A stretch of 37,555 bases of DNA from Chthoniobacteraceae bacterium (GCA_031409335.1 JANNWY010000093.1:1-37555), one strand, 5' to 3'; shown: positions 4,642 to 23,996, counted from the first letter of the stretch. Notes: generated by a model not told the origin, from the sequence alone. Program-made: numbers and translations.

Positions 4642-4698
4642 CAGACTGATCCTCACGTTTTCGTTTCCACACCGGCCTGATTCTGATTTCCCTACTTC

Positions 4699-6096: not shown

Positions 6097-7310
6097 GATC
6101 GCTGATCGTCGTGGCGTTTCTCGCGAGTGGCCTCGCGCTTTTCGCGGAATCGGTTCCGGAAAAATCTGCCGTCGTCGATAGTCGCGTGCTCATTCCCAAG
6201 GAGCAGATCACGCTCGCCGCGGTCGAGGCGGCGATGACGAAGGGCGTGGACTTTTTGGTGGTAAAACAAAACGCCGATGGATCGTTTGGCAGTGCGCGCC
6301 GGACGAAAGAGCTGAACATCTACGCGCCGCTTCCCGGTGCCCAAGATGCCTACCTCGCCGGGACGAGCGGGCTCGCGATTTCGGGCCTGATCGATGCGCA
6401 CGATTCTCGACCCGAAGTAAAGGCGGCGATCGAGAAGGCGGAGAAGTGGGCGTTTGCCAAACTGCCGGAGCTACGCCGCGCGGATGCCACGACGACTTAC
6501 AATGCGTGGGGCCATGCGTATGGGTTGCGGGCAATTTCGCGGCTATATCAATCCGCCGCTGGTGATGCCACGCGACAGGCTGCGCTCAAGGCCCTCGCCC
6601 AACAGCAAGCCGGGCTCGCCGACCGCTACGAATACCTGAACGGCGGATGGGGATATCTGCACCTCTTTGAGGAACTGCACACGCAAAAGCCGACGGGCAT
6701 CACGACCTCATTTACCACCGCAAGCGTGCTCCTCGCCATGCACGAAGCGCGCCAAACGATGGGCATCACGCTCGATCCGAAAATCGTCGAATCATCGCTC
6801 GCATCGATTCGCCGCCAGCAGTTTCCGGATTTCACCTACGCCTACTCCCACAGCCACCGCCTCGCGCCGCAGAATGAAATCAATCGCCGGAATGGATCGC
6901 TCGGACGCTCGCAAGCCTGCAACGCGACGCTCCGCGCGTTCGGCGACGCGAAGATTACCGACGCGGTGCTGACGAAGTGGGCCGACAATTTCATCGAGTT
7001 CGAACACTGGCTCGATCACGGGCGCAAGAAGCCCGTCCCGCACGAATCCACGTTCAAAATCGCCGGCTATTTCTACTACTACGGCATCTACTATTTCACC
7101 GTCTCCGTGCAGTATTTGCCGAAGGAAAAACAACGCGAACTCGCCAGATCGCTCGCGCGAATCATTCTCACGCGGCAGGAAAAAGACGGCTCGTGGTGGG
7201 ACTACCCGCTCTACGATTACGGCCAGGCCTACGGCACCGGCTACGCGCTCATGTCCCTGAAATGGTGCCGCGAGGCGATGCAAGAGGCCGCATCACCATC
7301 GTTGCAGTGA
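6093..7310 (+). CDS. Secreted prenyltransferase/squalene-oxidase repeat (alpha/alpha toroid) protein
   Basis: Signal peptide. QW-like repeats GVDFLVVKQNADGSF, NGGWGY and ILTRQEKDGSW. Overlaps the upstream stop (ATGA). Confidence 0.7.
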   Translation: MRSLIVVAFLASGLALFAESVPEKSAVVDSRVLIPKEQITLAAVEAAMTKGVDFLVVKQNADGSFGSARRTKELNIYAPLPGAQDAYLAGTSGLAISGLIDAHDSRPEVKAAIEKAEKWAFAKLPELRRADATTTYNAWGHAYGLRAISRLYQSAAGDATRQAALKALAQQQAGLADRYEYLNGGWGYLHLFEELHTQKPTGITTSFTTASVLLAMHEARQTMGITLDPKIVESSLASIRRQQFPDFTYAYSHSHRLAPQNEINRRNGSLGRSQACNATLRAFGDAKITDAVLTKWADNFIEFEHWLDHGRKKPVPHESTFKIAGYFYYYGIYYFTVSVQYLPKEKQRELARSLARIILTRQEKDGSWWDYPLYDYGQAYGTGYALMSLKWCREAMQEAASPSLQ

Positions 7311-7414
7311 TCGCATCAGCGCTCGCCTGACATTTTTTTGACATTCCTTTTACCGCGCTCTGGCACCGCGGTTCTAAGGATGAGGTAGAGGTTTTCGTCG
7401 AACACACGAAACCT

Positions 7415-8806: not shown

Positions 8807-8808
8807 CG

Positions 8809-9969
8809 ATGATGGTGCAATCCCGCCGCGAATTCCTGCTGCGCGCCGGTGCGCTGTGCGGCGGCGCGCTCACCGGCTGGGCCGGAATGCCGCGCACCGA
8901 CGCTGCTGAAGTGCGGCGCGCGGCAGTGGCCTTTCTCGTCGCGCGACAATCGGCGGACGGCGCGTGGCGCTCGACCCACTACGGTGCGTTCCGCGACGGC
9001 GACGCGCTCACACCGCTCGTGCTCTGGGCGCTCACCAGCGTGCCCCGCGCGGATGCAGGAAGCGTGGCGCACGGGATCGGCTGGCTGGAAAAGCTGACGC
9101 TCGCTCAATCCGCACGTCCCGAGGCGTGGACCGAATTGCGCTATCCGCTTTTCACCGCCAGCTACTCCGCGCAGATTTTCGCGAAACAGGGCGACGATCG
9201 TCGCGCCGGATTTTGGGCCGATGTCGTCGAGCAACTCCGCATCGCCCCATCGCTCGGATGGCCCGCGGATGCCGACGCCTGTGGCGCGTGGAGCGATGCG
9301 CCCGCGCCACCACGGCTTTCACCCGGCGCCTCGCCTCCGCCGGACATGCTCGCGCCCAATCTCTCCGCGACGGTCCTCGGCCTTCAGGCACTCATCGCCA
9401 CCGGGCGACGCGATCGCACCGCGGCGGCGCTGCCGTTCCTCACGCAATGCCAAAATTTCTCCGCGTCGTCGTCCGATTCGTTTGCTGACGGCGGATTCTT
9501 CTTCGCTCCCGGCGATCCCATCAGAAACAAGGCGGGCATCGCCGGTCGCGACGCCGCGGGTCGCGAACGCTATCACTCGTACGGCAGCGCGACTTGCGAT
9601 GGAGTCCTCGCCCTGCACGCCTGCGGCCTGACGCTCACCGACCCGCGCCTTCGTGCCGCAGTCACATGGCTCCAGCGCCACACCGCCGGCGCGCACCACA
9701 GCGGCACATGGGCCGCAGACCGCACCGACGAACGCGAATCGCTCCGCTTTTACCACGCCCAGGCGCTGGCCGCCGTATTCCCGATCGCGAGCCATGATTC
9801 CTCTCCCTGTGCATGGGCCACGGCCCAGCACCAGTCGTTAATCAGCGACCTCGTGAGTCAGCGAAACTTGGACGCCTCGTGGGCGGGGATCTGTCCGGAA
9901 AGCTTTGAAGATGACCCAATGATCGCCTCTGCATTCGCCCTGCGAGCGCTTTCCTTTGGAGAACTTTGA
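8809..9969 (+). CDS. Tat-exported prenyltransferase/squalene-oxidase repeat protein
   Basis: Start re-assigned to the ATG 2 nt after the upstream stop. Twin-arginine SRREFLLRAG. Repeats AVAFLVARQSADGAW, FLTQCQN...DGGFFF and LVSQRNLDASW. Confidence 0.7.
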   Translation: MMVQSRREFLLRAGALCGGALTGWAGMPRTDAAEVRRAAVAFLVARQSADGAWRSTHYGAFRDGDALTPLVLWALTSVPRADAGSVAHGIGWLEKLTLAQSARPEAWTELRYPLFTASYSAQIFAKQGDDRRAGFWADVVEQLRIAPSLGWPADADACGAWSDAPAPPRLSPGASPPPDMLAPNLSATVLGLQALIATGRRDRTAAALPFLTQCQNFSASSSDSFADGGFFFAPGDPIRNKAGIAGRDAAGRERYHSYGSATCDGVLALHACGLTLTDPRLRAAVTWLQRHTAGAHHSGTWAADRTDERESLRFYHAQALAAVFPIASHDSSPCAWATAQHQSLISDLVSQRNLDASWAGICPESFEDDPMIASAFALRALSFGEL

Positions 9970-10140
9970 AGCGGATCGTGCGCGTCGTTCCTTCCGTAGT
10001 TCCGGCGGGTCTAACGCGGAGAGTGGTTGCCTGGAGTGATGCAAAACAAACGTAACCCCGGCAGAAACTCCTAGCGGACATAAGATGAGGCGGGAAGATG
10101 CGCTAGCCGCTGGCGGTCATCGCAGCGTTCCAATCCCCTT

Positions 10141-13100
10141 ATGAAACGAACTCTCCTGAGTCTCCTCTCCCTTCCCGTGATCGCCATCGCTGCGGACAGC
10201 GTCGTCGTTTTCAACGAAGTCCACTATCACCCGGCCAACGAGGTCGCGCAGACGGAGTGGGTCGAGCTGCGCAATTTGCACGGGGTGGATGTCGATATCG
10301 CGGGCTGGCGGCTGGAGGGCGGGATTGCCTACACGTTTCCCGCCGGGACGCGCATCGCGGGCGGGGCGTATCTCGTCGTCGCGAAAGTGCCGGGGCAAAT
10401 CGCGGGCGCGCTCGGGCCATTCACGGGGATTCTCGATAATGGCGGGGAGGAAATCCGCCTCGTGAATCGCAGCGATCGCGCGATGGATGTGCTGAATTAT
10501 TCCGATGATGGCGACTGGCCTGCGGGCGCGGACGGCAGCGGTGCGACGCTCTCGCGGCGCATTGCCTACTCGGCGGATGGCGGGCCGCTGGCGTGGTCGG
10601 CGAGCAATCAGCTCGGCGGCACTCCCGGCGCGGTGAATTTCCCCAGCCCGACCGATCCGCCGACGGTGACGACGCCCATCCCGCTGAATGCGATTTGGAA
10701 ATATCGCGACGACAACGTGGCTCCGCCCGCGACTTGGAAGGACACGGCTTTCGACGACAGCGCGTGGGCCAGCGGCGGCGCGCTGCTCTACGCGGGCAGC
10801 CCGAATATCACCGGCGCTGGCGAGGGTCTGCTCGGCTACTGGCCATTGCAGGAGACATCGGGCACCGCCGTGCCGAATGTGGCGCCTGGCGGGACGAGTG
10901 GGACGATTTTCAATGGCGTGACGTGGGTGAATGACGCGACGCGCGGGCGGGTGCTGAACTTCGACGGCGTGGATGGTTACGTGAACGCCGGGAGCATCCC
11001 GCAGCCCACGATGGCGAACAATTTTACGTGGTCGTTCTGGGGTTACTCGGCCTCGACCGGGAACACGAGTGTCGTGCTCGGCAACCGTTTCTCGCCGACG
11101 AACGGCGTGGGTTTCAATCCGCTGGAGTTCGTGAAGTTCACGACGGCGTCGTTTGAATTTTACCGGGAGGGCGCGCAGGAGGGGATCGACTATGCGGACA
11201 TGCTCGTAAACGTGTGGACGCATCACGCGGTGGTGAAGCAGGGCGCGACGCTTAACTACTATCGAAACGGAGCCGCCGCCGGGTCGCGGACGATCACCCA
11301 GGCGCTGCGCAACCCACAGCCTTTCTACTTCGGCGGCGATCAGGTGAATGAAAACTGGGGCGGGCGCATGGACGACGTGGCGGTGTGGACGAAGGCGCTG
11401 CCGGCGGCGTCCATCACGGGCCTCGCGAATGGCACGCTGACACCGCTCACCGCGCCGACTGGGAGCACGGCGGGCACGCTCACGACTGCGCTCGCGCTCG
11501 GGCCGACGACGCACTATTTCCGCCGCGCGTTCACTTTCAACGGCGACAAAACGCGCACGACGCTCGCGTTCCAGCATCTGCTCGACGATGGCGCGGTCGT
11601 GTATCTCAACGGCGTCGAAGTGCTCCGCGTGAACATGCCCGGCGGTGCGATCGCGCACGGGACGCCGGCCTCGAGCGACGTCACGGGATCTTTTCTGGTC
11701 TCGAACGTCGCCATCCCGTCCAACGATCTCGTGGTCGGGACGAACGTGCTCGCGGTCGAGGTGCATCAGCACACGGCGAATCCCGATCTGGTTTTCGGAG
11801 CGTCGCTCACCGCGACCGAGACGGCGGGGCCGACGACATTCCCCGGCGGCGCGCTCGTGTTGAATGAAATCGGCGGCGCGAACGACGTGACCTTCCGCGT
11901 GGAGCTGGCGAATCTCACCGGCTCCGCGGTCAGCCTCGCGGACTACCAACTGCGCGGCAGCAACGGCGGCAGCTCCACGCTCAGTGGCTCGCTCTTGCCG
12001 GGCGCGCTGCTTTCACTCGACGAGACACAAATGGGTTTCCGCCCGATCGACGGCGAGAGGCTTTTCATCGTGAATACTGTCGCGAACACCCTCGGCGACG
12101 GACGCACCGTGACGACTGGTTTGCGCGGGCGCAACTCGGCGGGCGTGTGGGCGCATCCGAGCGTGGCGACCTTCGGCTCGGCGAATGCCTTCACGACGCA
12201 CGACGAGATCGTGATCAACGAAATCATGTACAATGCGCCGGGCACGTCGCCGGAGCAGTGGGTCGAGCTTTACAACAAAAGCGGCGGAGCCGTGGACATC
12301 GGCGGGTGGCATTTCACGGACGGCATCGGCTACACCTTTCCGCCGGGCACGATGCTCGGCGCTGGCGAATACGCGCTGGTGGTTTGGGACGTGGCTGCTT
12401 TCAACGCGCTGCATCCCGCACTTCCGCGTGTCTTCGGACCGCTCAGCGGCGGACTCAGTGGAAAGGGCGAGCGCGTGCGGCTGCGCGATGCGGACGACAA
12501 TCTCGCGGACGAACTGGAGTATTTCACCGGTGGGACGTGGCCGGAATTCGCGGACGGCGGCGGCTCATCGCTGGAGCTGAAGAATCCGAACGCCGACAAT
12601 ACGAACGCGGTCGCGTGGGCCGGGAGCAACGAAGTCGCCAACGGCTCGTGGGTGAATGTGAGCTACGACTTCAGCGGAGCGAATCTCGAAAGCAATGTGA
12701 CGGATTACAGCGAGCTTCTCGTCGGCATGGTGGCGGGCGGCGAGGCGTTTATCGACGACCTCGAAGTCATCGAAGACCCGCTCACCATTCCGCGCTCGCT
12801 GCTTGCGAATGGCAATTTCTCAGGCGGCACCGCGGCGTCGTGGCGCTTTCAGGGAAATCACCGCACGAGCACCGTGGTGGACGACCCGTCATCGCCGGGC
12901 AACAAGGTGCTGAAAATCGTCGCGACGGGCTACACCGAGCACATGTCGAATCACTGCGAGACGACGCTGCGCAGCGGCGCGACGCTCCCGTGGCCGATCA
13001 ACCCGGCGAAGACCTATCGCATCAAGTATCGCGCGCACTGGGCTGGCGGCGGAAACCGTCTGCAAACGCGGCTCTACTTCAATCGCGGGGCGCGTCAGGA

Positions 13101-15840
13101 ACTCCTGCCGATGCCCACGACGGGCGGCACGCCCGGCCTGCAAAATTCGCGGTTCGTCGCCAACACCGGCCCCACTTTTTCCGGCACTACACACGCGCCC
13201 GCCGTGCCCGGAGCCTCACAAGCGGCGGTCGTGAGCGCGCGCATCGCGGACAGCGACGGCGTCACTTCCGCCACGCTTTTCTACTCGGTGAATGAAGGCG
13301 CATTCGTTCCGGTGGGGATGACGAACACCGGCGGTGTGTGGAGCGGGACCATCCCCGGCCAGGCGCTCAACGCGAAGGCGCAGTTTTACATTCAGGCCGC
13401 CGACGCACTCGGCGCGACCGCGACCTTCCCCGCGAACGGCACCGCGGGCCGCGCGATGATTCCGTGGAACGACAGTCAGGCCGCGCTCACGCTCCCGACC
13501 GGAGTGAGTCCGCACAATGTGCGCATCGTCATGACCACGACCGACGCGAACAGCAGCCTCCTCGCGCTCAACAACGTGATGAGCAACGAATACCGCCCCT
13601 GCACGGTCATCTACGACGAGCGCGACATTTACTACGGCGCGGGCGTGCATCTCAAAGGCAGCGAGCATGGCCGCGCGAAGTTCTCCTCGCGCACGGGCTT
13701 TCACCTCAGCTTTTCACCGGACCAACTTTTCCTCGGACAGCACTCGGATGTCGCGGCGGATCGCAGCGGCGCGGGCGATCAATTTTCGCAAAAAGAGATG
13801 CTCGTGAAACGCACGCTCAACGCTGTCGGCGGCATCCCGGCGAGCGAGGATGATTTGTGCCGCCTTATCGCGCCCGGCGTCGCGACCGGGCCGGCGATTT
13901 TGATCAAGGCGAAGGTGGACTCGAATGAGTTCCTCGATAACTGGCTGCCGAACGGGGGCGACGGGACCTTCTTCGAGTACGAGCTGACTTACTCGATGTT
14001 CACGGGAGCCATCGCGACTTCCACTGACAACGGCACTTGGGAGGGCAACAAGCTCACGCAGGACAGCGCCGCACCGGGCGTCGGCGTGCGCAAGCTCAAT
14101 CCGGGTCTCAGCAAGGAAGAATATCGCTGGTACTGGCTCATCAAAAATAATCGCAGCGCTGACAACTACGCGCCGCTCATCACCGCGCTCACCGCGCTCG
14201 GGCAGGGGAGCGGACCGACGTTCATCACTCAAACCAACGCGCTGATCGACGTGGACGGATGGCTGCGCAACATGGCCGGGCCGGTCGCGTGGAGCGCGGG
14301 CGACAACTACGCTTTCAACTCCGCGCACAACGCGCTCCTTTTCGTGAAGCCCGACGGGAAAACGCTCTACGTGCCGTGGGATATGGACTTCACCGCGACC
14401 GGCGGCGCGACTGCGGGAATCACCGGGATCAACACCGAGATGGACAAGTTCGTCGGCGACGCCGGAAACCGCCGCGCGTATTACGGGCACTTGCTCGACT
14501 TGTGCAACCGCGCGTTCAACACCGGCTACCTCTCGTATTGGGCGCAGCATTACACAAAGTTCGTGAACGAAGACCTCACAGGCTTCATGTCGTTTGTCGC
14601 AGCGCGCGAGACGCACATCCGCAACACCATCAACGCGGCGATTCCGAACGTGGCCTTCGCCATCGCACCCGCGCCGCCCGCGAATGTCGCCGCGAATTCC
14701 GTCACGCTCACCGGCAGCGGTTGGGTGAACATCCGCGAGTTCCGCCGCGCCGACACCGGTGCCGTGCTGCCCGGGACGTGGACCGGCAACACCGCATGGT
14801 CGCTCAGCTACGCGCTGGTCCCCGGCCCGAATGCAATCACGCTGCAATTCTACGACTTCCAGGGCGCGCTCATCGGCACCGCGACGGCGAACGTCAACAA
14901 CACCCTCACGCCACCCACGCCGCGCGACTGGCTGCGCATCACCGAAGTCCACTACCACCCCGCGGATCCCTCGACGCCCGGAGAACTCTCCGCGAGCCCG
15001 GACCCCGACGACTTCGAGTTCATCGAACTGCAAAACCTCGCCAGCACTACGCTCGACGTGAGCGGGTGCAAATTCACCGTCGGAGTGGACGCGACCATCG
15101 GCGGCAGCACGACCCTCGCCTTGCTCGAACGCGTCGTCGTCGTTCGCAACGTCGCCGCCTTCCAAGCGCGCTACGGGAACGGCCCGCGCATCATCGGCGC
15201 GTATGGCCCCGCCGACAGCCTGAGCAACGGCGGAGAAACGATCACGCTTGTGGACGCAACCGGCGCGGTGATCCAGAGCTTCACCTACGACGACGCATGG
15301 TTCCCGCTCACCGACGGCCCCGGACGTTCGCTCGTCGTGCGAGATCCGAGCGCGGCCGTCAGCGCGTGGAATGGCGCAGGTCAATGGGCCGCGAGCACCA
15401 CGCTCGGCGGCACGCCCGGTGCATCGAACACCGGCCAATTCGGCACGCAATTCGACGGCTGGCGCTACACCTATTTCACCCCCGCCGAACTCGCGAACCC
15501 CGCAATCAGCGGCGCGCTCGTTTCCACCAACGGCGTGAAGAACGCCCTGCGCTACGCCCTCGGCTACTACGCGCCACAACAACCCGCCGCCGCGCTCACC
15601 GTCATCGGCAGCGACGGCACATTTCTCACGATCACCTACCGCCGCACGAAGAACACCCTCGACGCCAACTTCACAATCGACGGCACCCCCGACCTCGTGA
15701 CATGGACCCCGCTTATGAATCCACCGACCACGACAATCGATAACGGTGACGGCACCGAAACCCACACCGTCCGCGACACCATCCCGATTTCCGCTGGCAC
15801 TAAACGCCACCTCCGCGTGCGCGTGACTTTGCAGCCGTAG
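10141..15840 (+). CDS. 1899-aa secreted lamin-tail / LamG / CotH-kinase family protein
   Basis: Signal peptide and several LTDs (VVFNEVHYHP...EWVELRN; IVINEIMYN...QWVELYN; LRITEVHYHP). LamG (LLGYWPLQE...WTHHAVV...GRMDDVAVW). CotH motifs GVHLKGS and HNALLF...VPWDMDF. Confidence 0.85.
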   Translation: MKRTLLSLLSLPVIAIAADSVVVFNEVHYHPANEVAQTEWVELRNLHGVDVDIAGWRLEGGIAYTFPAGTRIAGGAYLVVAKVPGQIAGALGPFTGILDNGGEEIRLVNRSDRAMDVLNYSDDGDWPAGADGSGATLSRRIAYSADGGPLAWSASNQLGGTPGAVNFPSPTDPPTVTTPIPLNAIWKYRDDNVAPPATWKDTAFDDSAWASGGALLYAGSPNITGAGEGLLGYWPLQETSGTAVPNVAPGGTSGTIFNGVTWVNDATRGRVLNFDGVDGYVNAGSIPQPTMANNFTWSFWGYSASTGNTSVVLGNRFSPTNGVGFNPLEFVKFTTASFEFYREGAQEGIDYADMLVNVWTHHAVVKQGATLNYYRNGAAAGSRTITQALRNPQPFYFGGDQVNENWGGRMDDVAVWTKALPAASITGLANGTLTPLTAPTGSTAGTLTTALALGPTTHYFRRAFTFNGDKTRTTLAFQHLLDDGAVVYLNGVEVLRVNMPGGAIAHGTPASSDVTGSFLVSNVAIPSNDLVVGTNVLAVEVHQHTANPDLVFGASLTATETAGPTTFPGGALVLNEIGGANDVTFRVELANLTGSAVSLADYQLRGSNGGSSTLSGSLLPGALLSLDETQMGFRPIDGERLFIVNTVANTLGDGRTVTTGLRGRNSAGVWAHPSVATFGSANAFTTHDEIVINEIMYNAPGTSPEQWVELYNKSGGAVDIGGWHFTDGIGYTFPPGTMLGAGEYALVVWDVAAFNALHPALPRVFGPLSGGLSGKGERVRLRDADDNLADELEYFTGGTWPEFADGGGSSLELKNPNADNTNAVAWAGSNEVANGSWVNVSYDFSGANLESNVTDYSELLVGMVAGGEAFIDDLEVIEDPLTIPRSLLANGNFSGGTAASWRFQGNHRTSTVVDDPSSPGNKVLKIVATGYTEHMSNHCETTLRSGATLPWPINPAKTYRIKYRAHWAGGGNRLQTRLYFNRGARQELLPMPTTGGTPGLQNSRFVANTGPTFSGTTHAPAVPGASQAAVVSARIADSDGVTSATLFYSVNEGAFVPVGMTNTGGVWSGTIPGQALNAKAQFYIQAADALGATATFPANGTAGRAMIPWNDSQAALTLPTGVSPHNVRIVMTTTDANSSLLALNNVMSNEYRPCTVIYDERDIYYGAGVHLKGSEHGRAKFSSRTGFHLSFSPDQLFLGQHSDVAADRSGAGDQFSQKEMLVKRTLNAVGGIPASEDDLCRLIAPGVATGPAILIKAKVDSNEFLDNWLPNGGDGTFFEYELTYSMFTGAIATSTDNGTWEGNKLTQDSAAPGVGVRKLNPGLSKEEYRWYWLIKNNRSADNYAPLITALTALGQGSGPTFITQTNALIDVDGWLRNMAGPVAWSAGDNYAFNSAHNALLFVKPDGKTLYVPWDMDFTATGGATAGITGINTEMDKFVGDAGNRRAYYGHLLDLCNRAFNTGYLSYWAQHYTKFVNEDLTGFMSFVAARETHIRNTINAAIPNVAFAIAPAPPANVAANSVTLTGSGWVNIREFRRADTGAVLPGTWTGNTAWSLSYALVPGPNAITLQFYDFQGALIGTATANVNNTLTPPTPRDWLRITEVHYHPADPSTPGELSASPDPDDFEFIELQNLASTTLDVSGCKFTVGVDATIGGSTTLALLERVVVVRNVAAFQARYGNGPRIIGAYGPADSLSNGGETITLVDATGAVIQSFTYDDAWFPLTDGPGRSLVVRDPSAAVSAWNGAGQWAASTTLGGTPGASNTGQFGTQFDGWRYTYFTPAELANPAISGALVSTNGVKNALRYALGYYAPQQPAAALTVIGSDGTFLTITYRRTKNTLDANFTIDGTPDLVTWTPLMNPPTTTIDNGDGTETHTVRDTIPISAGTKRHLRVRVTLQP

Positions 15841-15951: not shown

Positions 15952-17124
15952 CTACTTGCTGTCGCTTCGCGACATTGCCAGCCACGGATGTTCGAGCGCG
16001 GTGGTGGCGGTGCTGCGAGTTGCGGGGTCGATCGTGAGGAGTTGCTGGAGAAAGGCGGCGGCTTCGGCGCGGGCGGGGGCGTTGAGCGTGCTGCGGCGGC
16101 GGAGGCGTTCGCGGATCGTGATTCGGTCAATGGTGGGGCGAAAGCGGAGCGCGCCGTCGGGCTCGAAGTAGGAGGCGCGAAATTTTGCGGCGGCGATTTG
16201 GTCGGCGGGGATCGGGCCGCGGAGGGCGGTGATGAGGAGGATGTGCTCGTAGTTGAGCGCGAGGTCGAGGAGGTCGTCGGCGCCTTTCGCACGCTTCCAT
16301 GCGCGGTCGGCGAGGTCGCGTGCGGTCAGGGCGCGCGGTGCGCTGGCGATGGCTTCGGCGTGTTTCCAGAGCGGTTTGTGGGAACGCGACAGCCGTTTTT
16401 CGTGGAGTGCGCGCGCGGACCAGACGGTGGCGAAACGGCCGCGGCCGAGTGCCCTTTCGAGATGGTATTTCCCGGCGACGATGTCGGCGCGGCGATGTTG
16501 CTCGGCGAGTTCCTCGGCGTCGTCGGCGAGCACGGTGGCGGCGAGTTCGGTGGGCGGGGCGTCGTGGCTGAATTCGCGATATTTTCGCGCGGCGGCGCGG
16601 CGCGGGGCGAAGAGAAGGTGGCCGGTGAGCATTTCGAACACGGTGCAGCCGAGCGCCCACAAATCCATTTCCACGCGGAGCGGTGCGCCGAGGATGACTT
16701 CGGGCGGGGTGTATTCGCGCGAGCCGAATCCACCGCCCTGCCGGAGTTGGTTCCGCGCGCTGCCGAGGTCGGCGAGGCAGGCAGTGCCGGTGCGCGCGTC
16801 GTAGAGAATGTTGTCGGGCTTGACGTCAGTGTGCGCGATTCCGCAGCGGTGCAGGCGGTCGAGCGCGGTGAGAATCTGGCGGGTGACGCGGCGGACGCGA
16901 GCGAGCGGCAGCGGCCCGCGGTGGAGCGCGGCTTCGAGGCTGCGACCGTGTTTTTCAAAAGCCATGCAGATGTGGCCGTCGTGCAGGAAGGATTCGTGCA
17001 GGGTGACGATCTCGGGACACGGCCCCGACTCGCGCACGCGGTGGTGGACGTAGATTTCCCAAGTCGCCGCGCGGGCGTAGCGGCGGCGCTGGATTTTTAA
17101 CGCGATGGCGGGCGCGGCGTTCAT
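15952..17124 (-). CDS. SRPK/CMGC-like Hanks-type Ser/Thr protein kinase with an internally relocated Gly-rich loop (390 aa)
   Basis: IALKIQ (beta3 Lys), HICMAFE, HTDVKPDN, ADLG, SREYTPPEVILG, DLWALGCTVFEMLTG, DPATRSTATTALEHPWL. GKYHLERALGRGRFATVW lies at residues 218-235. The in-frame upstream extension to 17301 is REP-derived. Confidence 0.85.
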   Translation of the reverse strand: MNAAPAIALKIQRRRYARAATWEIYVHHRVRESGPCPEIVTLHESFLHDGHICMAFEKHGRSLEAALHRGPLPLARVRRVTRQILTALDRLHRCGIAHTDVKPDNILYDARTGTACLADLGSARNQLRQGGGFGSREYTPPEVILGAPLRVEMDLWALGCTVFEMLTGHLLFAPRRAAARKYREFSHDAPPTELAATVLADDAEELAEQHRRADIVAGKYHLERALGRGRFATVWSARALHEKRLSRSHKPLWKHAEAIASAPRALTARDLADRAWKRAKGADDLLDLALNYEHILLITALRGPIPADQIAAAKFRASYFEPDGALRFRPTIDRITIRERLRRRSTLNAPARAEAAAFLQQLLTIDPATRSTATTALEHPWLAMSRSDSK

Positions 17125-17149
17125 GCTGGGAACGGGAGTGGGCGATCTC

Positions 17150-17269
17150 GTAGCGCGGGCTTCCTGCCTGCTGTATCGCGGGCCTCCGGCCTGCGAGACG
17201 CCTGCCGGTCGTGGGCGCCCGAGGCAGGCTGGAAGCCCGCGATACGGCAGGCGGGGACGCCTGCGCCAC
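17150..17269. repeat. REP cluster of four ~22-bp units (two forward, two inverted)
   Basis: gtagcgcgggcttcctgcctgc (17150-17171), gtatcgcgggcctccggcctgc (17173-17194), inverted gcaggctggaagcccgcgatac (17224-17245) and inverted gcaggcggggacgcctgcgccac (17247-17269). Confidence 0.75.
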
Positions 17270-17284
17270 AGTGACGGTTTTGGC

Positions 17285-18613
17285 TCATTGGTTGTCCACA
17301 AAGGCGCGGCGGATTTCGTAGAGGATGCGGCTGATAAGGCGCATGTCTTCGGTGACGATGCGGGCTTCGCCGGTCATTTCCTGCCGGAATTGCAGCGGGC
17401 GGTGGAAGCTCGTGGTGAGCGGGTGCGGGAGAGCGATGAGCACGAGATGCGCGCCGTCACGCGCGACCATCGAGACGCTTTGCACGGTGCCGGTGACGAG
17501 GCCGAATTCCTTGTAGGGATAGTCGTCGAGCCGGATGCGGACGGTCTGGCCGGGTTTGATTTTTCCGGCGCCGCCCGTTTTTACCGACATGCGGCCGAGT
17601 AGCGCGGAGGTTTCCGGGACGATGAGGAAAACCTGCCGCGCGGCGGTGACGAATTGCTGGTCGCTCCAGAAGTCGTAGAACGCGGTGATGCCATCCGCCG
17701 GGGCGCGCAGGACGTGGTCGGCGTCCCACACGTCGATTTCGCCGCGGAGTTTGTTGAGTTGCGCGCGCAGTTGTTCGCGCGCGGTGCGGAGGGCTTCGGT
17801 GCGCTCGTGTTCGAGGTCGCGAAGTTCCTTTTCGATTTCCGCGGCTTCGATTTCGGCGTCGGTCGCGGCGCGCGCAGCGACGGTGCCGGCGCGCATTTGC
17901 TGGATCATCGCTTTTTCCTGCTCCTGAAGATCGGAGATGCTGATGAGGCGGCTGTCGTCGAGCGATTTGGCGCGGTCGTATTTGGCGCGGGCGAGTTCGA
18001 GTTCGCGGGTCATCAGCGTGCTTTGTTCGCGCAGCGAGGCGACTTGTGTGCGCTTGCCTTCGATTTGCTGACGCAAAAGCGCGCCGGCTTTTTCGGCGTA
18101 GTCATCGCCGAGACGGCTGCCGAGCTGGCGGAAGGTCTGGAGGAAATCGGCGTAGCTTTGCTGCAACTTTCCGAGGCCGTCCTCGGGCTGAAAGCGGAGG
18201 TTCAACGCGGACGCGTCGCTGCCGATCACGGCCGCGAGTTGCGCGAGTTTTTCACCCAGCGGTAGCACGGTGGCGGAGCGCGCGGGGCTTTCGACGATGG
18301 CGAGGATCTCGCCTTTTTTCACCGCCTGCCCTTCGCGCACGCGCAGGCTTTCGAGATGCCCGCTCTGCCGCGCGACGACTTCGACGACGGGCTGCGTGCC
18401 GGTGATGCTGACGCGCCCGGTGATGGTGTCGGGATATTTGATGATGATGCTGAGCGCGAGGATGAGCGCGAGCGCGGCGGCGAGGACGAGGATGCCGGAA
18501 CGCAGCAGGAGGTGCGGCGGGCGGGCCATGAATTCATGCACGTCGGCGCTGAGCGCGCCGGGGGCGAGATGGGCGGGGACGAGGGCGGTGGTGGGGTCCG
18601 GGTCAGCGGGCAT
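17285..18613 (-). CDS. HlyD family secretion adaptor for the peptidase-containing ABC transporter
   Basis: N-terminal TM (ILVLAAALALILALSIIIKYPD), VREGQAVKKGEILA, coiled coil, LRAPADG, GKIKPGQTVRIRLDDYPYKEFGLVTGTV. Confidence 0.9.
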   Translation of the reverse strand: MPADPDPTTALVPAHLAPGALSADVHEFMARPPHLLLRSGILVLAAALALILALSIIIKYPDTITGRVSITGTQPVVEVVARQSGHLESLRVREGQAVKKGEILAIVESPARSATVLPLGEKLAQLAAVIGSDASALNLRFQPEDGLGKLQQSYADFLQTFRQLGSRLGDDYAEKAGALLRQQIEGKRTQVASLREQSTLMTRELELARAKYDRAKSLDDSRLISISDLQEQEKAMIQQMRAGTVAARAATDAEIEAAEIEKELRDLEHERTEALRTAREQLRAQLNKLRGEIDVWDADHVLRAPADGITAFYDFWSDQQFVTAARQVFLIVPETSALLGRMSVKTGGAGKIKPGQTVRIRLDDYPYKEFGLVTGTVQSVSMVARDGAHLVLIALPHPLTTSFHRPLQFRQEMTGEARIVTEDMRLISRILYEIRRAFVDNQ

Positions 18614-18621
18614 GGGGCGGT

Positions 18622-18732
18622 CTTTGAAAGTTGAAAGTTGGACGTTGAAAGTTGGAAGTTGAGCCCCGCGCAGCGGCGTTGCCTGCGGCGCTCAACGTCC
18701 AACTTTCAACGTTCAACATTCAACTTTCAAAG
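18622..18732. repeat. Inverted repeat built of TTGAAAG-like heptamer tandems
   Basis: 43-bp arms 18622-18664 and 18690-18732 with 3 mismatches. Units are TTGAAAG, TTGGACG and TTGGAAG. Fills the transporter-HlyD intergenic gap. Confidence 0.85.
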
Positions 18733-18741
18733 TCAGAAGCG

Positions 18742-20970
18742 TTAGCGCGCATGGGCGGCGGTGTTTTCGAGTTCGAGCTGGTTTCGCACGAGGCGGTAGT
18801 AGGTGTCTCCGCGCGCGACGAGGCCGCTGTGGTCGCCGACTTCGACGATGCGGCCCTGGTCCATGACGACGATCTGATCGGCGTCGCGCACGGTGCTGAG
18901 GCGATGCGCGATGACGACGACGGTGCGGCCTGCGGCGAACTCGCGGAGATTGGAAAGAATGGTGCTTTCGTTGTTCGCATCGAGGGCGCTGGTGGCTTCG
19001 TCGAGGAAGAGAAATTCGGGATTGCGATAGACGGCGCGGGCGAGGAGCAGGCGCTGCTTTTGTCCGCCGCTGAGGCCCTGGCCTTCCGCGCCGACCATCG
19101 TCTCGACGCCGTTCGGCAGCGTGCGCAGGTAGTCGCCGAGATTTGCGAGCATGATGGCGAGCCGCAGCCGCAGCGGGTCGATCGGCTCGCTGCCGGGCGC
19201 GATATTGCGCGCGACGCTGCTGGAGAAAATGTGGCCGTCCTGCATCACCACGCCACAGCGCTGCCGCCAGGCCTGGCCGTCGAAGGCGACGAGCGGAATG
19301 TTGCCGAGAAAAATTTCGCCCGCCGTGGGTTGGTAAAGGCCGAGCAGCAGCTTGAGCAGCGTCGTCTTTCCACTGCCGCTGGCGCCGACGATGGCGGTGA
19401 CTTTTCCCGAGGGAATCCGGAGGTCGATCTCGCGCAGCACGTCGGCGTGGCCCGCGCCGGGGTAGCGAAAGGTGAGCCCGGCGAGTTCGAGCGTCGCACC
19501 TTCGGGGATCGCGACGCTGGTGCCTTGCGGCGATTCTTCGTCGCGATGGCGGTAGATTTCCTGCATCCGCTCGAGGCTGAGGCGGGCGTCCTGCGCGGAG
19601 TAGATGAACTCCATGAGCCGCCCGATCGGTGAGTTGAGCTGGCCGACGATGTATTGCGTGGCGAGCATCATGCCGAAGGTCATTTCGCCCTGGATGACGG
19701 CGCGCGCGGCGAGGAAGGCGATGAGGATGTTGCGAAAATTCGACGCGAGAAAAAGGCCGATGCGCTGCGCCTGCTTGAGCGCGAGGCTCTGCGCTTCGAT
19801 GCGGTAAGAGCGCACGGCGAGGTGCTCCCAGTCCCAGCGTTTCGCGCGCTGGAGACCGTGGATTTTGATCTCGGGCATCGCGTGGACGATCTCGAAAAGG
19901 GTGTCGCGTTCCTTGGCTTCGAGGGTGAAACGTTTGTAGTCGAGGTTGCGCCGCCTTTTCAAAAAGAGACCGAGCCAGACCGCGGAGAGAATGGTGAAGA
20001 AGAGGAAGACGCCGAGGATTTGCCAGCTATAGAGCGCGAGCACGAAGGCGAAGACGACGAAGCTCAGCAGCGAAAAAATAATGTCGAGCGACGACGACAT
20101 GAGGAAGCTCTTCACGCGGCGGTGATCGCCGATGCGCTGCATGATGTCGCCCGCGGTGCGGCTCTCGAAAAACGGGACGGGCAGGCGGAGCAGCTTGCCG
20201 AGAAAATCGGCGATCATCGCGATGCTGACGCGCGCACCGACATGCAGCAGCAGCCAGCTTCGGATCATGTCCGCGACCGTCTGGCTGAGCGAAAGCATGA
20301 GCTGCGCGGCGAGCAGCACGTAGATGAAATTCAGGTCGAGATTGCCGATGCCCTGATCGACCACGGCCTGCGTGAGAAAGGGCAGGATCAGCTCGATGCC
20401 GAGGCCGACGAACATGCCGAGCAGCACTTGGAAAAGCAGGCGTTTGTGCGGGCGCAGGTAGTTGAAGAAAAACGCGAGGCCGCGCCCGTCGGCGTCCGCG
20501 TCGTCGCGGCCCGAGGCGCTCTGCTCGTGGAAGGCGGGCGTGACTTCGAGCAGCAGGTAAATGCCGGGCGCGTCCTCCACGAGCGGGGTCTCCGGCGGGG
20601 CGCTGGCGCGGATGAATTCGGCGTGCGTGTAGTCGATGAGGCCGTAGGCGGGATCGGCGACGCGGACCTTCTTGCGGGTGATTTCATAGACCACGACGAA
20701 GTGATCGTTCTCCCAATGCGCGATGCACGGGAGCGGGGCTTCTTCGCGCAGGCGCTTGAAGCTGAGCTTTACCGCAAGCGAGCGCAGGCCGAGGCGTTCC
20801 GCCGCTTCGGAGATGCCGAGCAGATTCACGCCGCCCTTGCCGATCTGGCAAAGCTCGCGCAGCCGCTCCTGCGGGAACTCGCGCCCGAAATGCGAGCAGA
20901 CCATCCGCAGCGATGCAGGCCCGCAATCCATGGCGTCGAGCTGGGCGTGGTAAGGGAAGCGGGATTTCAT
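18742..20970 (-). CDS. Peptidase C39 domain-containing ABC transporter (PCAT, SunT/LagD/ComA-like)
   Basis: QLDAMDCGPASL (catalytic Cys), IAHWENDHFVVV (catalytic His), ADPA, TM domain, Walker A GASGSGKTT, LSGGQKQR, FLDEATSALD, IAHRLST. Confidence 0.95.
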   Translation of the reverse strand: MKSRFPYHAQLDAMDCGPASLRMVCSHFGREFPQERLRELCQIGKGGVNLLGISEAAERLGLRSLAVKLSFKRLREEAPLPCIAHWENDHFVVVYEITRKKVRVADPAYGLIDYTHAEFIRASAPPETPLVEDAPGIYLLLEVTPAFHEQSASGRDDADADGRGLAFFFNYLRPHKRLLFQVLLGMFVGLGIELILPFLTQAVVDQGIGNLDLNFIYVLLAAQLMLSLSQTVADMIRSWLLLHVGARVSIAMIADFLGKLLRLPVPFFESRTAGDIMQRIGDHRRVKSFLMSSSLDIIFSLLSFVVFAFVLALYSWQILGVFLFFTILSAVWLGLFLKRRRNLDYKRFTLEAKERDTLFEIVHAMPEIKIHGLQRAKRWDWEHLAVRSYRIEAQSLALKQAQRIGLFLASNFRNILIAFLAARAVIQGEMTFGMMLATQYIVGQLNSPIGRLMEFIYSAQDARLSLERMQEIYRHRDEESPQGTSVAIPEGATLELAGLTFRYPGAGHADVLREIDLRIPSGKVTAIVGASGSGKTTLLKLLLGLYQPTAGEIFLGNIPLVAFDGQAWRQRCGVVMQDGHIFSSSVARNIAPGSEPIDPLRLRLAIMLANLGDYLRTLPNGVETMVGAEGQGLSGGQKQRLLLARAVYRNPEFLFLDEATSALDANNESTILSNLREFAAGRTVVVIAHRLSTVRDADQIVVMDQGRIVEVGDHSGLVARGDTYYRLVRNQLELENTAAHAR

Positions 20971-21019
20971 CGGTGGCAGACGGGGCCAACTGGTAGCAGA
21001 AGGCCCGGCCTTTCAGGAC

Positions 21020-21052
21020 AAAAAAACAGGAGGGCCGGTGAAGGCCCTCCTG
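21020..21052 (-). terminator. Intrinsic terminator/attenuator downstream of the precursor peptide gene
   Basis: Perfect 10-bp stem caggagggcc/ggccctcctg with a 6-nt loop, followed on the minus strand by T7 (A run 21020-21026). Confidence 0.85.
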
Positions 21053-21104
21053 ACAACTAATCTGACCGCCGTGGGCAGCCGTTTCTGGGGCTGTTAGCCG
21101 ACGA

Positions 21105-21320
21105 CTAGCACTTCGGTGGCGGTGGGCAGCCGCAGTTGCCGCCGCCGCTGCCGGATTTGCTGCCACCGGATTTGCTGCCGCCGGATTTACTGCTGCCGGA
21201 TTTGCCGCTCTTGCTCGATCCGCTCTTGCTCTTTTTGCCTTTTTTTCCGCCACCGCCGGTGACGGCGGCAGGGGCATTGATCGCGTCAGAAGCGAATTGG
21301 TCTAGGATGCTCTTTTTCAT
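21105..21320 (-). CDS. Double-glycine-leader precursor peptide with Lys/Ser/Gly-repeat core (putative RiPP precursor)
   Basis: Leader MKKSILDQFASDAINAPAAVTGG, then a 48-aa core with six KSG motifs and a CGCPPPPKC tail. SD-like AGAAAGG 9 nt upstream of the ATG. Directly upstream of a C39 transporter. Confidence 0.85.
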   Translation of the reverse strand: MKKSILDQFASDAINAPAAVTGGGGKKGKKSKSGSSKSGKSGSSKSGGSKSGGSKSGSGGGNCGCPPPPKC

Positions 21321-21501
21321 ATTAGGATACCTTTCTAGTTCTTACTTTCTGTTTTTGGGTTTGTTTTAACTGATCAATGCAGCACTCGCTGCGGTTCAGA
21401 CTTTGGAGATTGTCACAAGTTAGCGTCAACGATTTTTCAAAAAATCTTCTGCTTGACTCGGAACGGCATTTACGGTCCAAAGCCCTCAAATCATACTTAT
21501 T
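21321..21501. promoter_or_regulatory. AT-rich divergent intergenic region (putative shared promoter region)
   Basis: 181 bp between the divergent starts of the precursor and the lysyl oxidase, visibly AT-richer than the flanks. Individual -10/-35 boxes are not assigned. Confidence 0.5.
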
Positions 21502-23064
21502 ATGAACTATTCTAAGTGTCGGGATTTCGGAATTGCCGTTTGGGTTTTTGTCTTTGGTCTGCTGAGTGTGCTTGCTTCCGCCCAAACCGTGCTGACTAGC
21601 AACGTGCCGCTGGCAAATCTATCTGGCAGCGCGGGCAGCCAGGTGTTTTACCAAATCGCCGTCCCCACTGCGCAGACCAAGCTGGATATCCGCATCACCG
21701 GGTCGGGCGACTGCGATCTCTACGTGAAGCGGGGCTCGCAGCCGACGACATCGAGCTACGACTACCGGCCTTACACGAACACCAGCAATGAAACGGTCAC
21801 AGTGACGAATCCGGTGGCGGGCAATTGGTTCATCATGCTGCGCGGCTACAAGGCGTATTCCGGCCTGACGCTGGTCGCGATTCTCACTGGCGGCAGCACC
21901 ACGACGGCGGTGGCGACACCGACTTTCAGTCCGGTCGGCGGCACGTATCCGCAGCAGCAAAACGTGACGATCCGCACGGTCACGGCGAACGCCATCATTC
22001 GCTACACCACCAACGGAACTGACCCGACGGCGAGTTCGACGGTGTATAGCGCGCCGATCATCTTGAGCAGCACCACGACGCTGAAAGCGCGGGGTTTTCT
22101 CAGCGGGATGACGGATAGCGCAGTGGCGACGGCTACCTTCACCATCTCCGGCAGCGGCGTGAATATCCTGCAAAACGGGAGCCCGCGGGCCAACCTCGCG
22201 GCAGCCAAGGACAGTAAGACCTACTACCAGATTTCGGTGCCGGCGGGGCAGAGCGCCCTGGCCATCACCATCGCCGGCGGCGCGCAAAGCGGGGACTGCG
22301 ATCTGTATGTGCGTCGCGGTTCACAGCCCACGACTGCTACCTACGACTATCGGCCTTACCTCGGCGGGAGCAATGAAGCGGTCTCCGTATCGAGCCCGGT
22401 CGGCGGCGACTGGTTCATCATGCTCCATGGCTATACGACCTACAGCGGGGTGACCCTGACTGCGACTTACTCGGCCACGGCGAAGCCCGATCTCACGCCC
22501 TACACCGGCTCGCTGAACGCTTACACGACGACCGAGACCTTTAGTGGAAACGCCTGCGATGTGACTGAGGGGCTGGTCGTCTCTGGCACACGGAGGCTGC
22601 TCCGCTTCACCACCGAGACGCGCAACGTCGGCACGGCCGATCTCGTGCTGCGCAGCCCGGCGAACAACCCGCTCTTCACCTACGCGCCGTGCCATGGTCA
22701 CTATCACTTCAACAACTTCGCCGAATACCGGCTCATCAACTCGGCGGGACAGCAGGCGGCGATCGGGCAGAAAGTCGGCTTCTGCCTGGAGGATGTTTCG
22801 CGGTGGAATCCGGCGGCCAATTCGCGCGCTCAGTACGATTGCGACTATCAAGGCATCCAGGCCGGATGGTCGGACCTCTATACGCGAAATCTGCCGGGGC
22901 AATGGGTGGACATCACCGGCGTCGCTCCGGGCACTTACGTGCTGGAGATGCGGCTCGATACGGCCAATCGCATCGACGAAGCGAACGAGACAAACAACCT
23001 GGCGCGCGTCGAAGTGGTGATCGGCGCCGCCAATGGGGCGGTGACTTCGCGTCCGCTGCCCTGA
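21502..23064 (+). CDS. Secreted lysyl oxidase (LOX) family protein with two PPC domains and a CHB_HEX_C/FN3-like domain
   Basis: Signal peptide (ASA|Q). Two PPC repeats (GDCDLYVKRGSQPT...YDYRPY) and an ATPTFSP...IRYTTNGTDPT domain. LOX motifs LLRFTTETRNVG, CHGHYH, KVGFCLED, QGIQAGWSDLY...QWVDITGVAPGTYVL...EANETNN. Confidence 0.88.
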   Translation: MNYSKCRDFGIAVWVFVFGLLSVLASAQTVLTSNVPLANLSGSAGSQVFYQIAVPTAQTKLDIRITGSGDCDLYVKRGSQPTTSSYDYRPYTNTSNETVTVTNPVAGNWFIMLRGYKAYSGLTLVAILTGGSTTTAVATPTFSPVGGTYPQQQNVTIRTVTANAIIRYTTNGTDPTASSTVYSAPIILSSTTTLKARGFLSGMTDSAVATATFTISGSGVNILQNGSPRANLAAAKDSKTYYQISVPAGQSALAITIAGGAQSGDCDLYVRRGSQPTTATYDYRPYLGGSNEAVSVSSPVGGDWFIMLHGYTTYSGVTLTATYSATAKPDLTPYTGSLNAYTTTETFSGNACDVTEGLVVSGTRRLLRFTTETRNVGTADLVLRSPANNPLFTYAPCHGHYHFNNFAEYRLINSAGQQAAIGQKVGFCLEDVSRWNPAANSRAQYDCDYQGIQAGWSDLYTRNLPGQWVDITGVAPGTYVLEMRLDTANRIDEANETNNLARVEVVIGAANGAVTSRPLP

Positions 23065-23078
23065 GCCGCCGCTCTCGC

Positions 23079-23996
23079 GTGAAGCTCTCGGTTCCACGTT
23101 TCGTCGCCCTGCTCGCGGGGCTGCTGGTCACCTCGTATCTGATGACCTTTTTTCTCCAACGCCACGCCGTCGTGCCGCACAGCGCCCCGGTGGTGCCCTC
23201 GGTCGAGGTAGCGGTGGCAAACGATGAACCGCCGCGCGGGAATGAAGCCGTCTTCGCGGAGACGGCGGATCGGGTCACCATGGGCTCCGGCATTCTCCCC
23301 GAGCCTCCCACTGACGCACTCGTCGAATACGATCGGGTTCTGCGCCAAATGGCGACACTGCCGGACGGCGACGAGAAGATGCAGCTCGCCCGGCAGGTCG
23401 GCGCGATCCGCGACCGCATGGCCGCGCCCGTGCTCCTCGACTGGGCAGTCGTCACCACGGATCGCGCGCTTTTGCGCTCCGCGCTCGAAGCCCTCGGCCC
23501 GCTCGCCGATGCGGAATTGATCGCGGAAATCAAACTCCGTTTCGCCGCGGCCTTCCGCGCGGACGACCGCTACCGGCTCGGCAAAGTCATCCGAAGTATC
23601 ACCAACGCGGAGGCAGTCACGGCCTTGATCGAACTCGCCGACGACACCACCGCGCCGGAGCCGTTGACGGTCGCCGCGACCGAGGCGCTCGCCACCCTCG
23701 CGACGCCACCGGCGGTGAGCCTGCTGCTCGGAAAACTCGCGTCCGCGGAACCCGACGACACCGGCCGGCTAATGACCGCCATCGCGCGGATCGATCGCGA
23801 GGAAGCGCTCCCCTCACTCCAGTATGCGGCAGTCGGCAACAAGGATGCATCCACCGATCAGGCTCGCGTTGCCGCGATCCACGCCCTGGCGAATTTTCGC
23901 GACGAACCGACGCGCGAACTGCTCAAACGCCTCGACGCCGATCCCAGCGAAGACGTGCGCGACGCCGCGCGGGACGTCCTCGCGCGGAGCCGGTAA
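23079..23996 (+). CDS. Membrane-anchored HEAT/PBS-lyase repeat protein
   Basis: GTG start 14 nt after the LOX stop. N-terminal TM (FVALLAGLLVTSYLMTFFL) and HEAT-like helices (ARVAAIHALAN; LDADPSEDVRDAARDVL). Confidence 0.7.
   Translation: MKLSVPRFVALLAGLLVTSYLMTFFLQRHAVVPHSAPVVPSVEVAVANDEPPRGNEAVFAETADRVTMGSGILPEPPTDALVEYDRVLRQMATLPDGDEKMQLARQVGAIRDRMAAPVLLDWAVVTTDRALLRSALEALGPLADAELIAEIKLRFAAAFRADDRYRLGKVIRSITNAEAVTALIELADDTTAPEPLTVAATEALATLATPPAVSLLLGKLASAEPDDTGRLMTAIARIDREEALPSLQYAAVGNKDASTDQARVAAIHALANFRDEPTRELLKRLDADPSEDVRDAARDVLARSR

Follow-up and report, generated by a model that had tools for sequence, protein, structure and literature searches.

The locus and its gene content

The DNA analysed here, to which we refer as the window, is a stretch of 37,555 nucleotides from a Chthoniobacteraceae bacterium (GCA_031409335.1 JANNWY010000093.1:1-37555), a Verrucomicrobium of soil or sediment. 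Between positions 15952 and 23996 it carries a cassette composed of genes for a small precursor peptide, a peptidase-containing ATP-binding cassette (ABC) transporter (PCAT), an HlyD-type adaptor and a Ser/Thr kinase resembling the SR-protein kinases (SRPKs), next to which a secreted lysyl oxidase (LOX) and a HEAT-repeat protein are encoded. A scan of open reading frames (ORFs) and domains recovered all seven elements listed in a preliminary description of this DNA and confirmed their order; the ORFs, the domains and the divergence of the precursor and LOX genes were also as described there.

The precursor gene (21105-21320, minus strand) is an ORF of 71 aa, made up of a 23-aa leader and a 48-aa core, and has homologues in 24 loci. 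The exporter gene lies on the same strand (18742-20970) and encodes a PCAT of 742 aa, in which domain matches place a C39 peptidase, a transmembrane domain (TMD) and a nucleotide-binding domain (NBD). The gap between these two genes contains an intrinsic-terminator-like hairpin (21052-21027, minus strand) with a 10-bp stem (8 GC) and a T7 tract, which is a consensus match only and belongs to a class of sites that is not enriched (10 observed vs. 8.3 expected). Further along the minus strand are the gene for the HlyD-type periplasmic adaptor (17285-18613; 442 aa, also assigned by domain matches) and that for the kinase (15952-17124), a cytoplasmic protein of 390 aa with a Pkinase match at 1.5e-38. 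The open frame of the kinase reaches position 17301, which gives a 449-aa ORF; its homologues begin at the ATG at 17124, the start of the 390-aa protein.

On the plus strand, the LOX gene (21502-23064) encodes a secreted protein of 520 aa with two PPC domains, a CHB_HEX_C domain and a Lysyl_oxidase domain (5.8e-31). The HEAT-repeat gene (23079-23996) begins with a GTG at 23079, 15 nt past the LOX stop codon, and its product has an N-terminal hydrophobic helix; both genes diverge from the precursor. The interval 21001-22000, which covers the precursor and the divergent intergenic region, has a GC fraction of 0.559, against approximately 0.61-0.69 elsewhere.

Conservation and linkage of the cassette

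The conserved core unit consists of four genes, those of the precursor, the PCAT, HlyD and the kinase. We examined 31 loci of the kinase family: the window, 7 from reference genomes, 18 from metagenome contigs and 5 from genomes of the same taxonomic family. HlyD, PCAT and/or precursor genes adjoin the kinase in 29 of them (7/7, 16/18 and 5/5, respectively, plus the window), and the other two, L033 and L038, show no partners because the kinase sits at the start of the contig and its upstream region is unseen. Two gene orders were found, precursor-(OEP)-PCAT-HlyD-kinase, as in the window, and HlyD-kinase-precursor-PCAT, such that the same four genes are kept together in both. In every locus but L010 where that side of the kinase can be seen, HlyD is immediately upstream of it, and a gene for an outer-membrane protein (OEP) is located inside the cassette in L014, L148, L149, L150 and L152.

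Of the 151 genomes of the taxonomic family, 11 (in 5 of 29 genera) have the kinase and 12 have the precursor, the latter being all 11 kinase-positive genomes and only 1 of the 140 kinase-negative ones. The lone kinase-negative genome with a precursor, G525, is 82% complete and fragmented into 980 contigs. Together with the 29 of 31 loci, this distribution supports the system proposed in the preliminary description, in that precursor, C39 exporter, HlyD and SRPK-like kinase form one conserved group. When 400 genomes sampled from the phylum were searched at E<=1e-20, with the kinase ORF of 449 aa as the query, only the window's own genome gave a match.

The kinase family comprised 355 matches, the best 120 of them at 50-78% identity, and the homologues are approximately 385 aa long. 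About 25 clusters, formed at the 50% identity level, align colinearly across the entire kinase profile. The genome of the window has one kinase of the cassette type among 40 kinase-like matches. The metagenome loci L044-L105 were rejected as members, as only kinase residues from about 7 to 180 align there, at 23-45% identity and with no cassette genes nearby, which is the picture of ordinary CMGC-like kinases; they were excluded from all counts, as were L016 and L017 for the same reason. In L152 (G541:C10, 9349-14080) the kinase match is divided into three pieces and the PCAT match into two overlapping ones, a splitting that suggests frameshifts or assembly errors, so that the cassette may be decaying there.

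The precursor peptides

The core of the window precursor is a Lys/Ser/Gly repeat closed by a C-terminal Cys motif. In its 48 residues we counted 11 Lys, 14 Ser, 15 Gly and 3 Cys, the first two figures being the same as those given before. We recovered 25 precursors from the 24 loci. Their leaders follow the consensus MKKSILDQFAADAINAPAAVTGG, with M1, F9, I14, G22 and G23 invariant (21 precursors in the case of G22-G23). In 18 leaders, the pairwise differences at codon positions 1, 2 and 3 were 0.13, 0.15 and 0.49, that is, the leader DNA varies chiefly at third positions, which argues that the leader is under selection at the protein level and that the gene is truly coding. A conserved leader followed by a variable core is what distinguishes the precursors of peptides made on the ribosome and modified after translation (RiPPs), and these precursors have that structure.

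The cores are polycations of low complexity; across the 21 that were aligned, Lys and Arg together amount to 7-18 residues, Ser and Thr to 4-17, and Asp and Glu to 0-1. Sixteen of the 25 are Lys/Ser(Gly) repeats, mostly with the terminal Cys motif, one is of a Lys/Pro/Thr type, and the remaining eight, all on metagenome contigs, are Arg-Thr repeats ('TRTRTRTR') with neither Lys nor Cys. All of the Arg-Thr cores pair with one clade of the kinase tree (support 100/99), from which it follows that the switch from Lys-Ser to Arg-Thr was a single event. Both residue types were exchanged and the alternation of basic and hydroxyl residues was retained, as would be expected if the hydroxyls were phospho-acceptors read via their basic neighbours. 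The resemblance of the core to an SRPK-type substrate, noted earlier for the window alone, extends to the relatives in which Lys/Ser is replaced by Arg/Thr.

The window genome has a single precursor. Locus L010 has two in tandem (3744-3962 and 4361-4579) with identical leaders and differing cores, one of them lacking the C-terminal Cys pair motif, and in G497 there is a weak second precursor match on another contig. No NCBIfam family was matched by the precursor. The sole Pfam match, to TAF4, was rejected as a low-complexity artefact (16.5 bits vs. a cut-off of 33).

A kinase with a relocated Gly-rich loop

By sequence, the closest solved proteins to the kinase are Sky1p, SRPK1 and SRPK2 (6e-32), followed by DYRK2, PRP4 and CLK. 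The predicted fold, modelled with a mean predicted local distance difference test (pLDDT) of 93.5 and a predicted template-modelling score (pTM) of 0.92, ranks the relatives likewise, with Sky1p, SRPK1 and SRPK2 on top (1.6e-16; template-modelling score, TM, 0.63-0.72). All of the catalytic residues are present. In 37 sequences of the family K10, E23, H98, D100, K102, N105, D119-L120, P141-E142, G227, G229 and V234 are invariant, and G121 of the DLG motif is kept in at least 90%.

The order of these parts along the chain is not that of the canonical SRPK-family core, in which the Gly-rich loop precedes the VAIK Lys. The protein starts 5-9 residues ahead of its VAIK-type Lys, K10, hence there is no Gly-rich loop N-terminal to it. 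Helix F is followed by an insert of about 115 residues, and it is here, at 218-240, that a canonical GxGxFxxVW segment is found; HMMER aligned this segment, out of order, to residues 19-40 of Sky1p, the N-terminal Gly-rich loop. The alignment is short and by itself weak (6.4 bits); the parts that flank the segment align to later portions of Sky1p, so that the order is permuted. In the structure model, residues 218-240 form a beta hairpin that supplies the two strands otherwise missing from the N-lobe, and the arrangement is retained in relatives down to approximately 30% identity. The out-of-order alignment and the invariance of the motif, along with the hairpin and the high confidence (pLDDT, pTM) of the model, all argue for packing of the hairpin over the ATP site, and we consider it very probable that the hairpin covers that site. 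The label of SRPK-like that the kinase had been given is thus right as to its nearest relatives in sequence and fold, but does not hold for the colinear kinase core. We found no kinase with a relocated Gly-rich loop in the literature searched, a search that left most subscription journals outside; WNG1 is said to be a kinase devoid of the Gly-rich loop.

The 390 residues are almost wholly occupied by the kinase fold, with no sensor, transmembrane or partner domain. Assignment to the class III/IV lanthipeptide synthetases was discarded, as this is a kinase-only protein that scores 45 bits vs. 650 for LanL and 29 vs. 575 for LanKC. A CotH-type module was likewise discarded, since the cassette kinase is a Pkinase and the CotH domain of the region resides only in a neighbouring giant protein. 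That neighbour (10141-15840, plus strand) is a secreted protein of 1899 aa with three Lamin Tail Domains, a Laminin_G_3 domain and a CotH kinase domain, and its gene is convergent with that of the cassette kinase; by analogy with CotH, it is conceivable as a second, extracellular kinase for a Lys/Ser peptide. Weak Lamin Tail Domain matches occur near L149 and L154 too. In two family members from metagenomes, P0114 and P0119 (716 and 727 aa), the permuted kinase is preceded in the same chain by an additional domain of about 330 aa, which gives weak ABC1/APH-like, that is, kinase-like, matches.

Predicted docking of the leader on the kinase

We predicted the complex of kinase, ATP and precursor with one alignment per protein. 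The scores were 0.77, 0.77 and 0.76, against 0.01 for the best control, and the score mark used is attained by 116 of 157 solved complexes and by 2 of 215 mismatched pairs. The runs share at least 48% of their contacts, with a pLDDT of about 50 for the partner. The confident contacts join leader residues 2-25 with kinase residues 175-198, 272-292 and 328, and include the invariant residues K181, Y182, E184, W276, G281, A282, D284, L288 and F328, which flank the family-specific insert. The model supports, as a prediction, docking of the leader on the insert of the kinase.

The exporter

The exporter is an ordinary PCAT. Its N-terminal C39 domain (Peptidase_C39, 3.1e-32) is followed by a TMD (ABC_membrane, 4.5e-24) and an NBD (ABC_tran, 6.8e-30), as is proper of the PCATs and the ABC transporter maturation and secretion (AMS) proteins. 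The catalytic Cys, His and Asp of C39 align to LahT150 (6MPZ; 1.4e-19) and indicate, as far as the alignment tells, an active peptidase. The protein falls under every NCBIfam equivalog cut-off, the best being NHLM_micro_ABC1 (431 bits vs. 853). With LahT, PCAT1 and ComA it shares the C39 catalytic residues, the TMD and NBD, the HlyD partner and the invariant GG of the substrate; it differs from these systems in that the leader seems to depart from the hydrophobic spacing that is canonical for such leaders.

The lysyl oxidase and its variants

Aligned to LOXL2 (5ZE3), the window LOX keeps the His triad that binds Cu, together with the Lys and Tyr of the lysine tyrosylquinone (LTQ) cofactor, residues that are defined in PMC4448552. 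Its N-terminus, read from the sequence, resembles a signal peptide, and no NCBIfam family was matched by the protein. The LOX domain (PF01186) occurs in 28 of the 151 family genomes, 8 of the 11 kinase-positive and 20 of the 140 kinase-negative ones, and three types can be told apart.

Type 1 comprises the orthologues of the window LOX (62-76% identity), always with the HEAT gene after them, in G000, G497, G500, G454 and G463. The gene is divergent from the precursor in G000; in G497 it shares the strand of HlyD and lies upstream of it, and in G500 it is convergent with HlyD, there on a contig separate from that of the kinase. The LOX-HEAT pair is unlinked to the cassette in G454 (L023), and in G463, a genome 79% complete in which kinase and precursor were not found, it is at a contig end. 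Type 2 is a secreted protein of 1312-1400 aa with an N-terminal LOX, which also retains the His triad, Lys and Tyr, and with PA14, He_PIG, GLEYA and PKD domains after it. In G526 and G528 its gene is the next one downstream of the kinase; in G554 (L153) the gene is not linked to the cassette, and in G538, in which the kinase was not found, it lies at the end of a contig. Type 3 groups paralogues with 29-46% identity and without HEAT that are widespread among kinase-negative genomes.

A LOX gene thus adjoins the cassette in 5 of the 11 kinase-positive genomes (G000, G497, G500, G526 and G528), in four arrangements, two architectures and three clades of the kinase. Types 1 and 2 together are present in 7 of the 11 kinase-positive genomes vs. 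2 of the 140 kinase-negative ones; since these genomes are related and mostly metagenome-assembled, the counts are suggestive and do not amount to statistical proof. The three kinase-positive genomes with no LOX match are 74-84% complete, among them that of L152 (G541; 83% complete), and no LOX was found in the more distant carriers G404 and G405. G539, 96% complete, has only a LOX paralogue, located away from the cassette. The preliminary description had counted LOX as a member of the system; its recurrence beside the cassette agrees with this, but it is not a constant member, and the Arg-Thr cores have no Lys for it to act on. LOX is, then, an accessory of the Lys-type lineages.

Other large secreted proteins are encoded near these loci. 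Directly upstream of the HlyD gene next to HEAT-LOX, L024 (G500; 2343-12575, plus strand) encodes a surface protein of 3410 aa, which has DUF11, SdrD_B, SpaA and Cna-B-like domains and is another candidate substrate for LOX. In L014, from a distant carrier without LOX, a secreted protein (11208-13256, minus strand) with PPC and PKD domains and a weak match to reprolysin-like metallopeptidases is encoded divergently from the kinase. This protein may represent another kind of extracellular partner.

Discussion

The cassette joins leader-dependent tailoring of a peptide to PCAT export, and two of its features are out of the ordinary, namely the rearranged kinase and the link to LOX. The kinase is its constant enzyme and for that reason its defining one. 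From the gene content, the conservation and linkage of the genes and the catalytic residues of kinase and LOX, we propose the following course of events. After synthesis of the 71-aa precursor, the conserved leader would dock in a groove formed by the family-specific insert of the kinase, which would phosphorylate many of the core Ser residues (Thr in relatives) adjoining Lys or Arg in the polycationic repeats, such that the charge of the core, from +7 to +18, would be neutralised or reversed. The C39 domain of the exporter would then cut after G22-G23, and the core would leave the cell through the exporter, HlyD and an OEP channel of the outer membrane, whose gene forms part of the cassette in relatives. 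In the Lys-type lineages the co-located secreted oxidase, either LOX+HEAT or the LOX-PA14-PKD surface protein, would oxidise lysines of the peptide and lead to its cross-linking or attachment, the product being an extracellular polyampholyte material and not a classical antibiotic.

These steps differ in how probable they seem to us. Phosphorylation of the core by the kinase is likely, and it could serve the handling and export of the peptide, its final function, or both. The course from synthesis to release, with LOX as an accessory of the Lys-type lineages, we place slightly above an even chance. Action of LOX on the cassette peptide falls somewhat short of even, although a Lys-rich secreted peptide is an obvious substrate for such an enzyme and the recurrent adjacency of the genes supports the connection. 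A role of the product as a material, an adhesive or a mineral-binding agent is possible but doubtful. Unlikely when taken as a whole is the fullest version, in which a leader-docked, loop-transplanted kinase derived from SRPKs processively phosphorylates the Lys/Ser core and a dedicated LOX cross-links or anchors the exported polyampholyte.

Several observations weigh against the proposed course. Each chemical step in it is inferred. Most of the genomes, and all of the named loci, are metagenome-assembled and mutually related, so that the counts do not represent independent events, and the switch from Lys-Ser to Arg-Thr likewise counts as one evolutionary event only. The complex prediction placed the leader but not the core, which stays out of the active site, with a fold confidence for the partner of about 50, and the custom alignments and the accompanying ATP depart from the conditions under which the docking score was calibrated. 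As for LOX, it is not adjacent to the cassette in 6 of the 11 kinase-positive genomes (elsewhere in three, not found in three), and its paralogues in kinase-negative genomes mean that it has other roles. The Arg-Thr cores are devoid of Lys, and L032, the only Arg-Thr locus with 10-kb flanks, showed neither LOX nor any other tailoring gene.

The constancy of kinase and exporter as sole partners of the precursor, with LOX optional, could also be read in terms of safety. Phosphorylation would then only mask a toxic, protamine-like cation so that it can be held safely and exported against the membrane potential; the phosphates would be removed outside, and the active product would be a cationic bacteriocin to which LOX is unrelated. 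The composition of the cores, with 7-18 Lys/Arg and 0-1 acidic residues, fits such a product, the Arg-Thr cores cannot be substrates of LOX, and export of bacteriocins is classical for PCAT cassettes. Nevertheless, neither an immunity gene nor a phosphatase was seen in any cassette, the recurrent adjacency of LOX in two architectures is left unaccounted for, and Cys motifs and Gly-rich spacers are, in our judgement, atypical of helical cationic bacteriocins; we regard this explanation as rather unlikely. Least probable of all is that the kinase leaves the peptide as it is, to be exported in that form, and acts as a regulator of the exporter or in signalling that the peptide triggers. Most bacterial Ser/Thr kinases are regulators, and the window genome alone has 40 kinase-like matches, but sensor, transmembrane and partner domains are all missing from this kinase, its family was found only with the cassette in the loci seen, the invariant residues of its insert are those predicted to contact the leader, and the composition of the cores follows the logic of SRPK substrates.

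A third alternative concerns LOX only and is compatible with phosphorylation of the peptide by the kinase. LOX+HEAT and the giant LOX could be an independent module of surface remodelling whose substrates are other secreted proteins, for instance nearby giant adhesin-like proteins, and the proximity to the cassette would be due to shared regulation or chance inheritance. The presence of LOX paralogues in 20 of the 140 kinase-negative genomes speaks in its favour, as do the unlinked LOX-HEAT of G454, the unlinked giant LOX of G554 and the giant surface proteins that flank several loci, such as the CotH-domain protein of the window and the 3410-aa protein of L024. On the other hand, the cassette-associated types of LOX are concentrated in the kinase-positive genomes, the only two kinase-negative ones that have them carry them at contig ends, the adjacency recurs in four distinct arrangements, and an exported Lys-rich peptide offers an evident amine substrate. 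We consider this alternative nearly as good as an even prospect for the LOX step.

Returning to the proposed course, in which the kinase modifies a leader-bearing peptide before its export, several known systems share parts of it. With Sky1p and SRPK1/2 the kinase has in common, besides the best match in sequence and fold and the full set of catalytic residues, a putative substrate in which hydroxyl residues stand beside basic ones, as in RS-dipeptide repeats, and a predicted docking site for a separate segment that lies at a distance from the active site, beside the region aligned to helix G of the SRPKs. Unlike them, it is a bacterial protein of 390 aa with its Gly-rich hairpin in an insert after helix F and with no SRPK spacer at the usual site, and its substrate would be small, leader-bearing and exported, with Lys/Ser or Arg/Thr instead of Arg/Ser.

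Polyphosphorylation of Ser-rich repeats is known from the Bacillus spore coat, where the available part of PMC7821199 describes the CotH kinase as acting on the Ser/Lys/Arg-rich (SKR) regions of coat proteins. The CotH-CotB/CotG module resembles the cassette in having a dedicated kinase and polyphosphorylated Ser-rich repeats that shape an extracellular structure; it differs in that its kinase is atypical and unrelated, its substrates are coat proteins and not an exported leader peptide, and neither PCAT nor LOX takes part. Among RiPPs, the phosphorylated members listed in the available part of PMC12639078 are microcin C, paeninodin, pseudomycoidin, phospeptin, salivaricin 10 and a cyanobactin kinase domain, and that part of the list includes no stand-alone SRPK-like kinase. 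The same source assigns phospeptin to the LanM-like EmbM, in agreement with the preliminary description, which had attributed it to a LanM-type enzyme. The systems that rely on HPrK-type lasso kinases, EmbM, or the cyanobactin and class III/IV kinase domains have, as here, a leader-bearing precursor and a cluster-encoded kinase. In contrast to them, the present cassette has a stand-alone SRPK-like kinase with no lyase or cyclase, and its cores are repetitive polycations that offer many potential sites and not one or a few.

Animal lysyl oxidases cross-link collagen and elastin. The window LOX resembles animal and prokaryotic LOX proteins in its three essential His, its LTQ Lys and Tyr, and its secretion; it departs from them in its candidate substrate, a small ribosomal peptide, and in its fusion to PPC domains, or to PA14/PKD in the second type. 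The role of prokaryotic LOX is stated as open in the available parts of PMC4448552 and PMC6452851. A further parallel lies outside the bacteria and concerns the composition of the cores. Diatom silaffins are Ser/Lys-rich, heavily phosphorylated, silica-forming peptides whose lysines are modified with polyamines. The Ser/Lys-rich repeats and the presumed multi-site phosphorylation of Ser are alike in both; there is no homology, however, the lysines of silaffins are not oxidised, and the analogy fails for the Arg-Thr subfamily.

We found no published description of the cassette in the literature searched, which left out most subscription journals. The relocated Gly-rich loop of the kinase, the Arg-Thr subfamily of cores and the second LOX architecture were absent from the preliminary description.

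If the proposed course is true, the cassette would represent a class of RiPPs defined by multi-site phosphorylation through a stand-alone SRPK-like kinase. Peptides that are polycationic or phospho-polyampholytes attract interest as adhesives and coacervates, for mineralisation and as antimicrobials. The kinase family is in itself a natural experiment, in which the hairpin of the Gly-rich loop has been displaced in the chain and the catalytic residues have all been kept, and the locus supplies a concrete candidate substrate for a prokaryotic LOX. Should the fullest version apply, with a phosphorylated core that is cross-linked or anchored by LOX outside the cell, the peptide would be the first natural substrate of a prokaryotic LOX, the kinase would be the first protein kinase with an ATP-lid hairpin supplied by the C-lobe, and these bacteria would have a counterpart of the matrix chemistry of silaffins or collagen.

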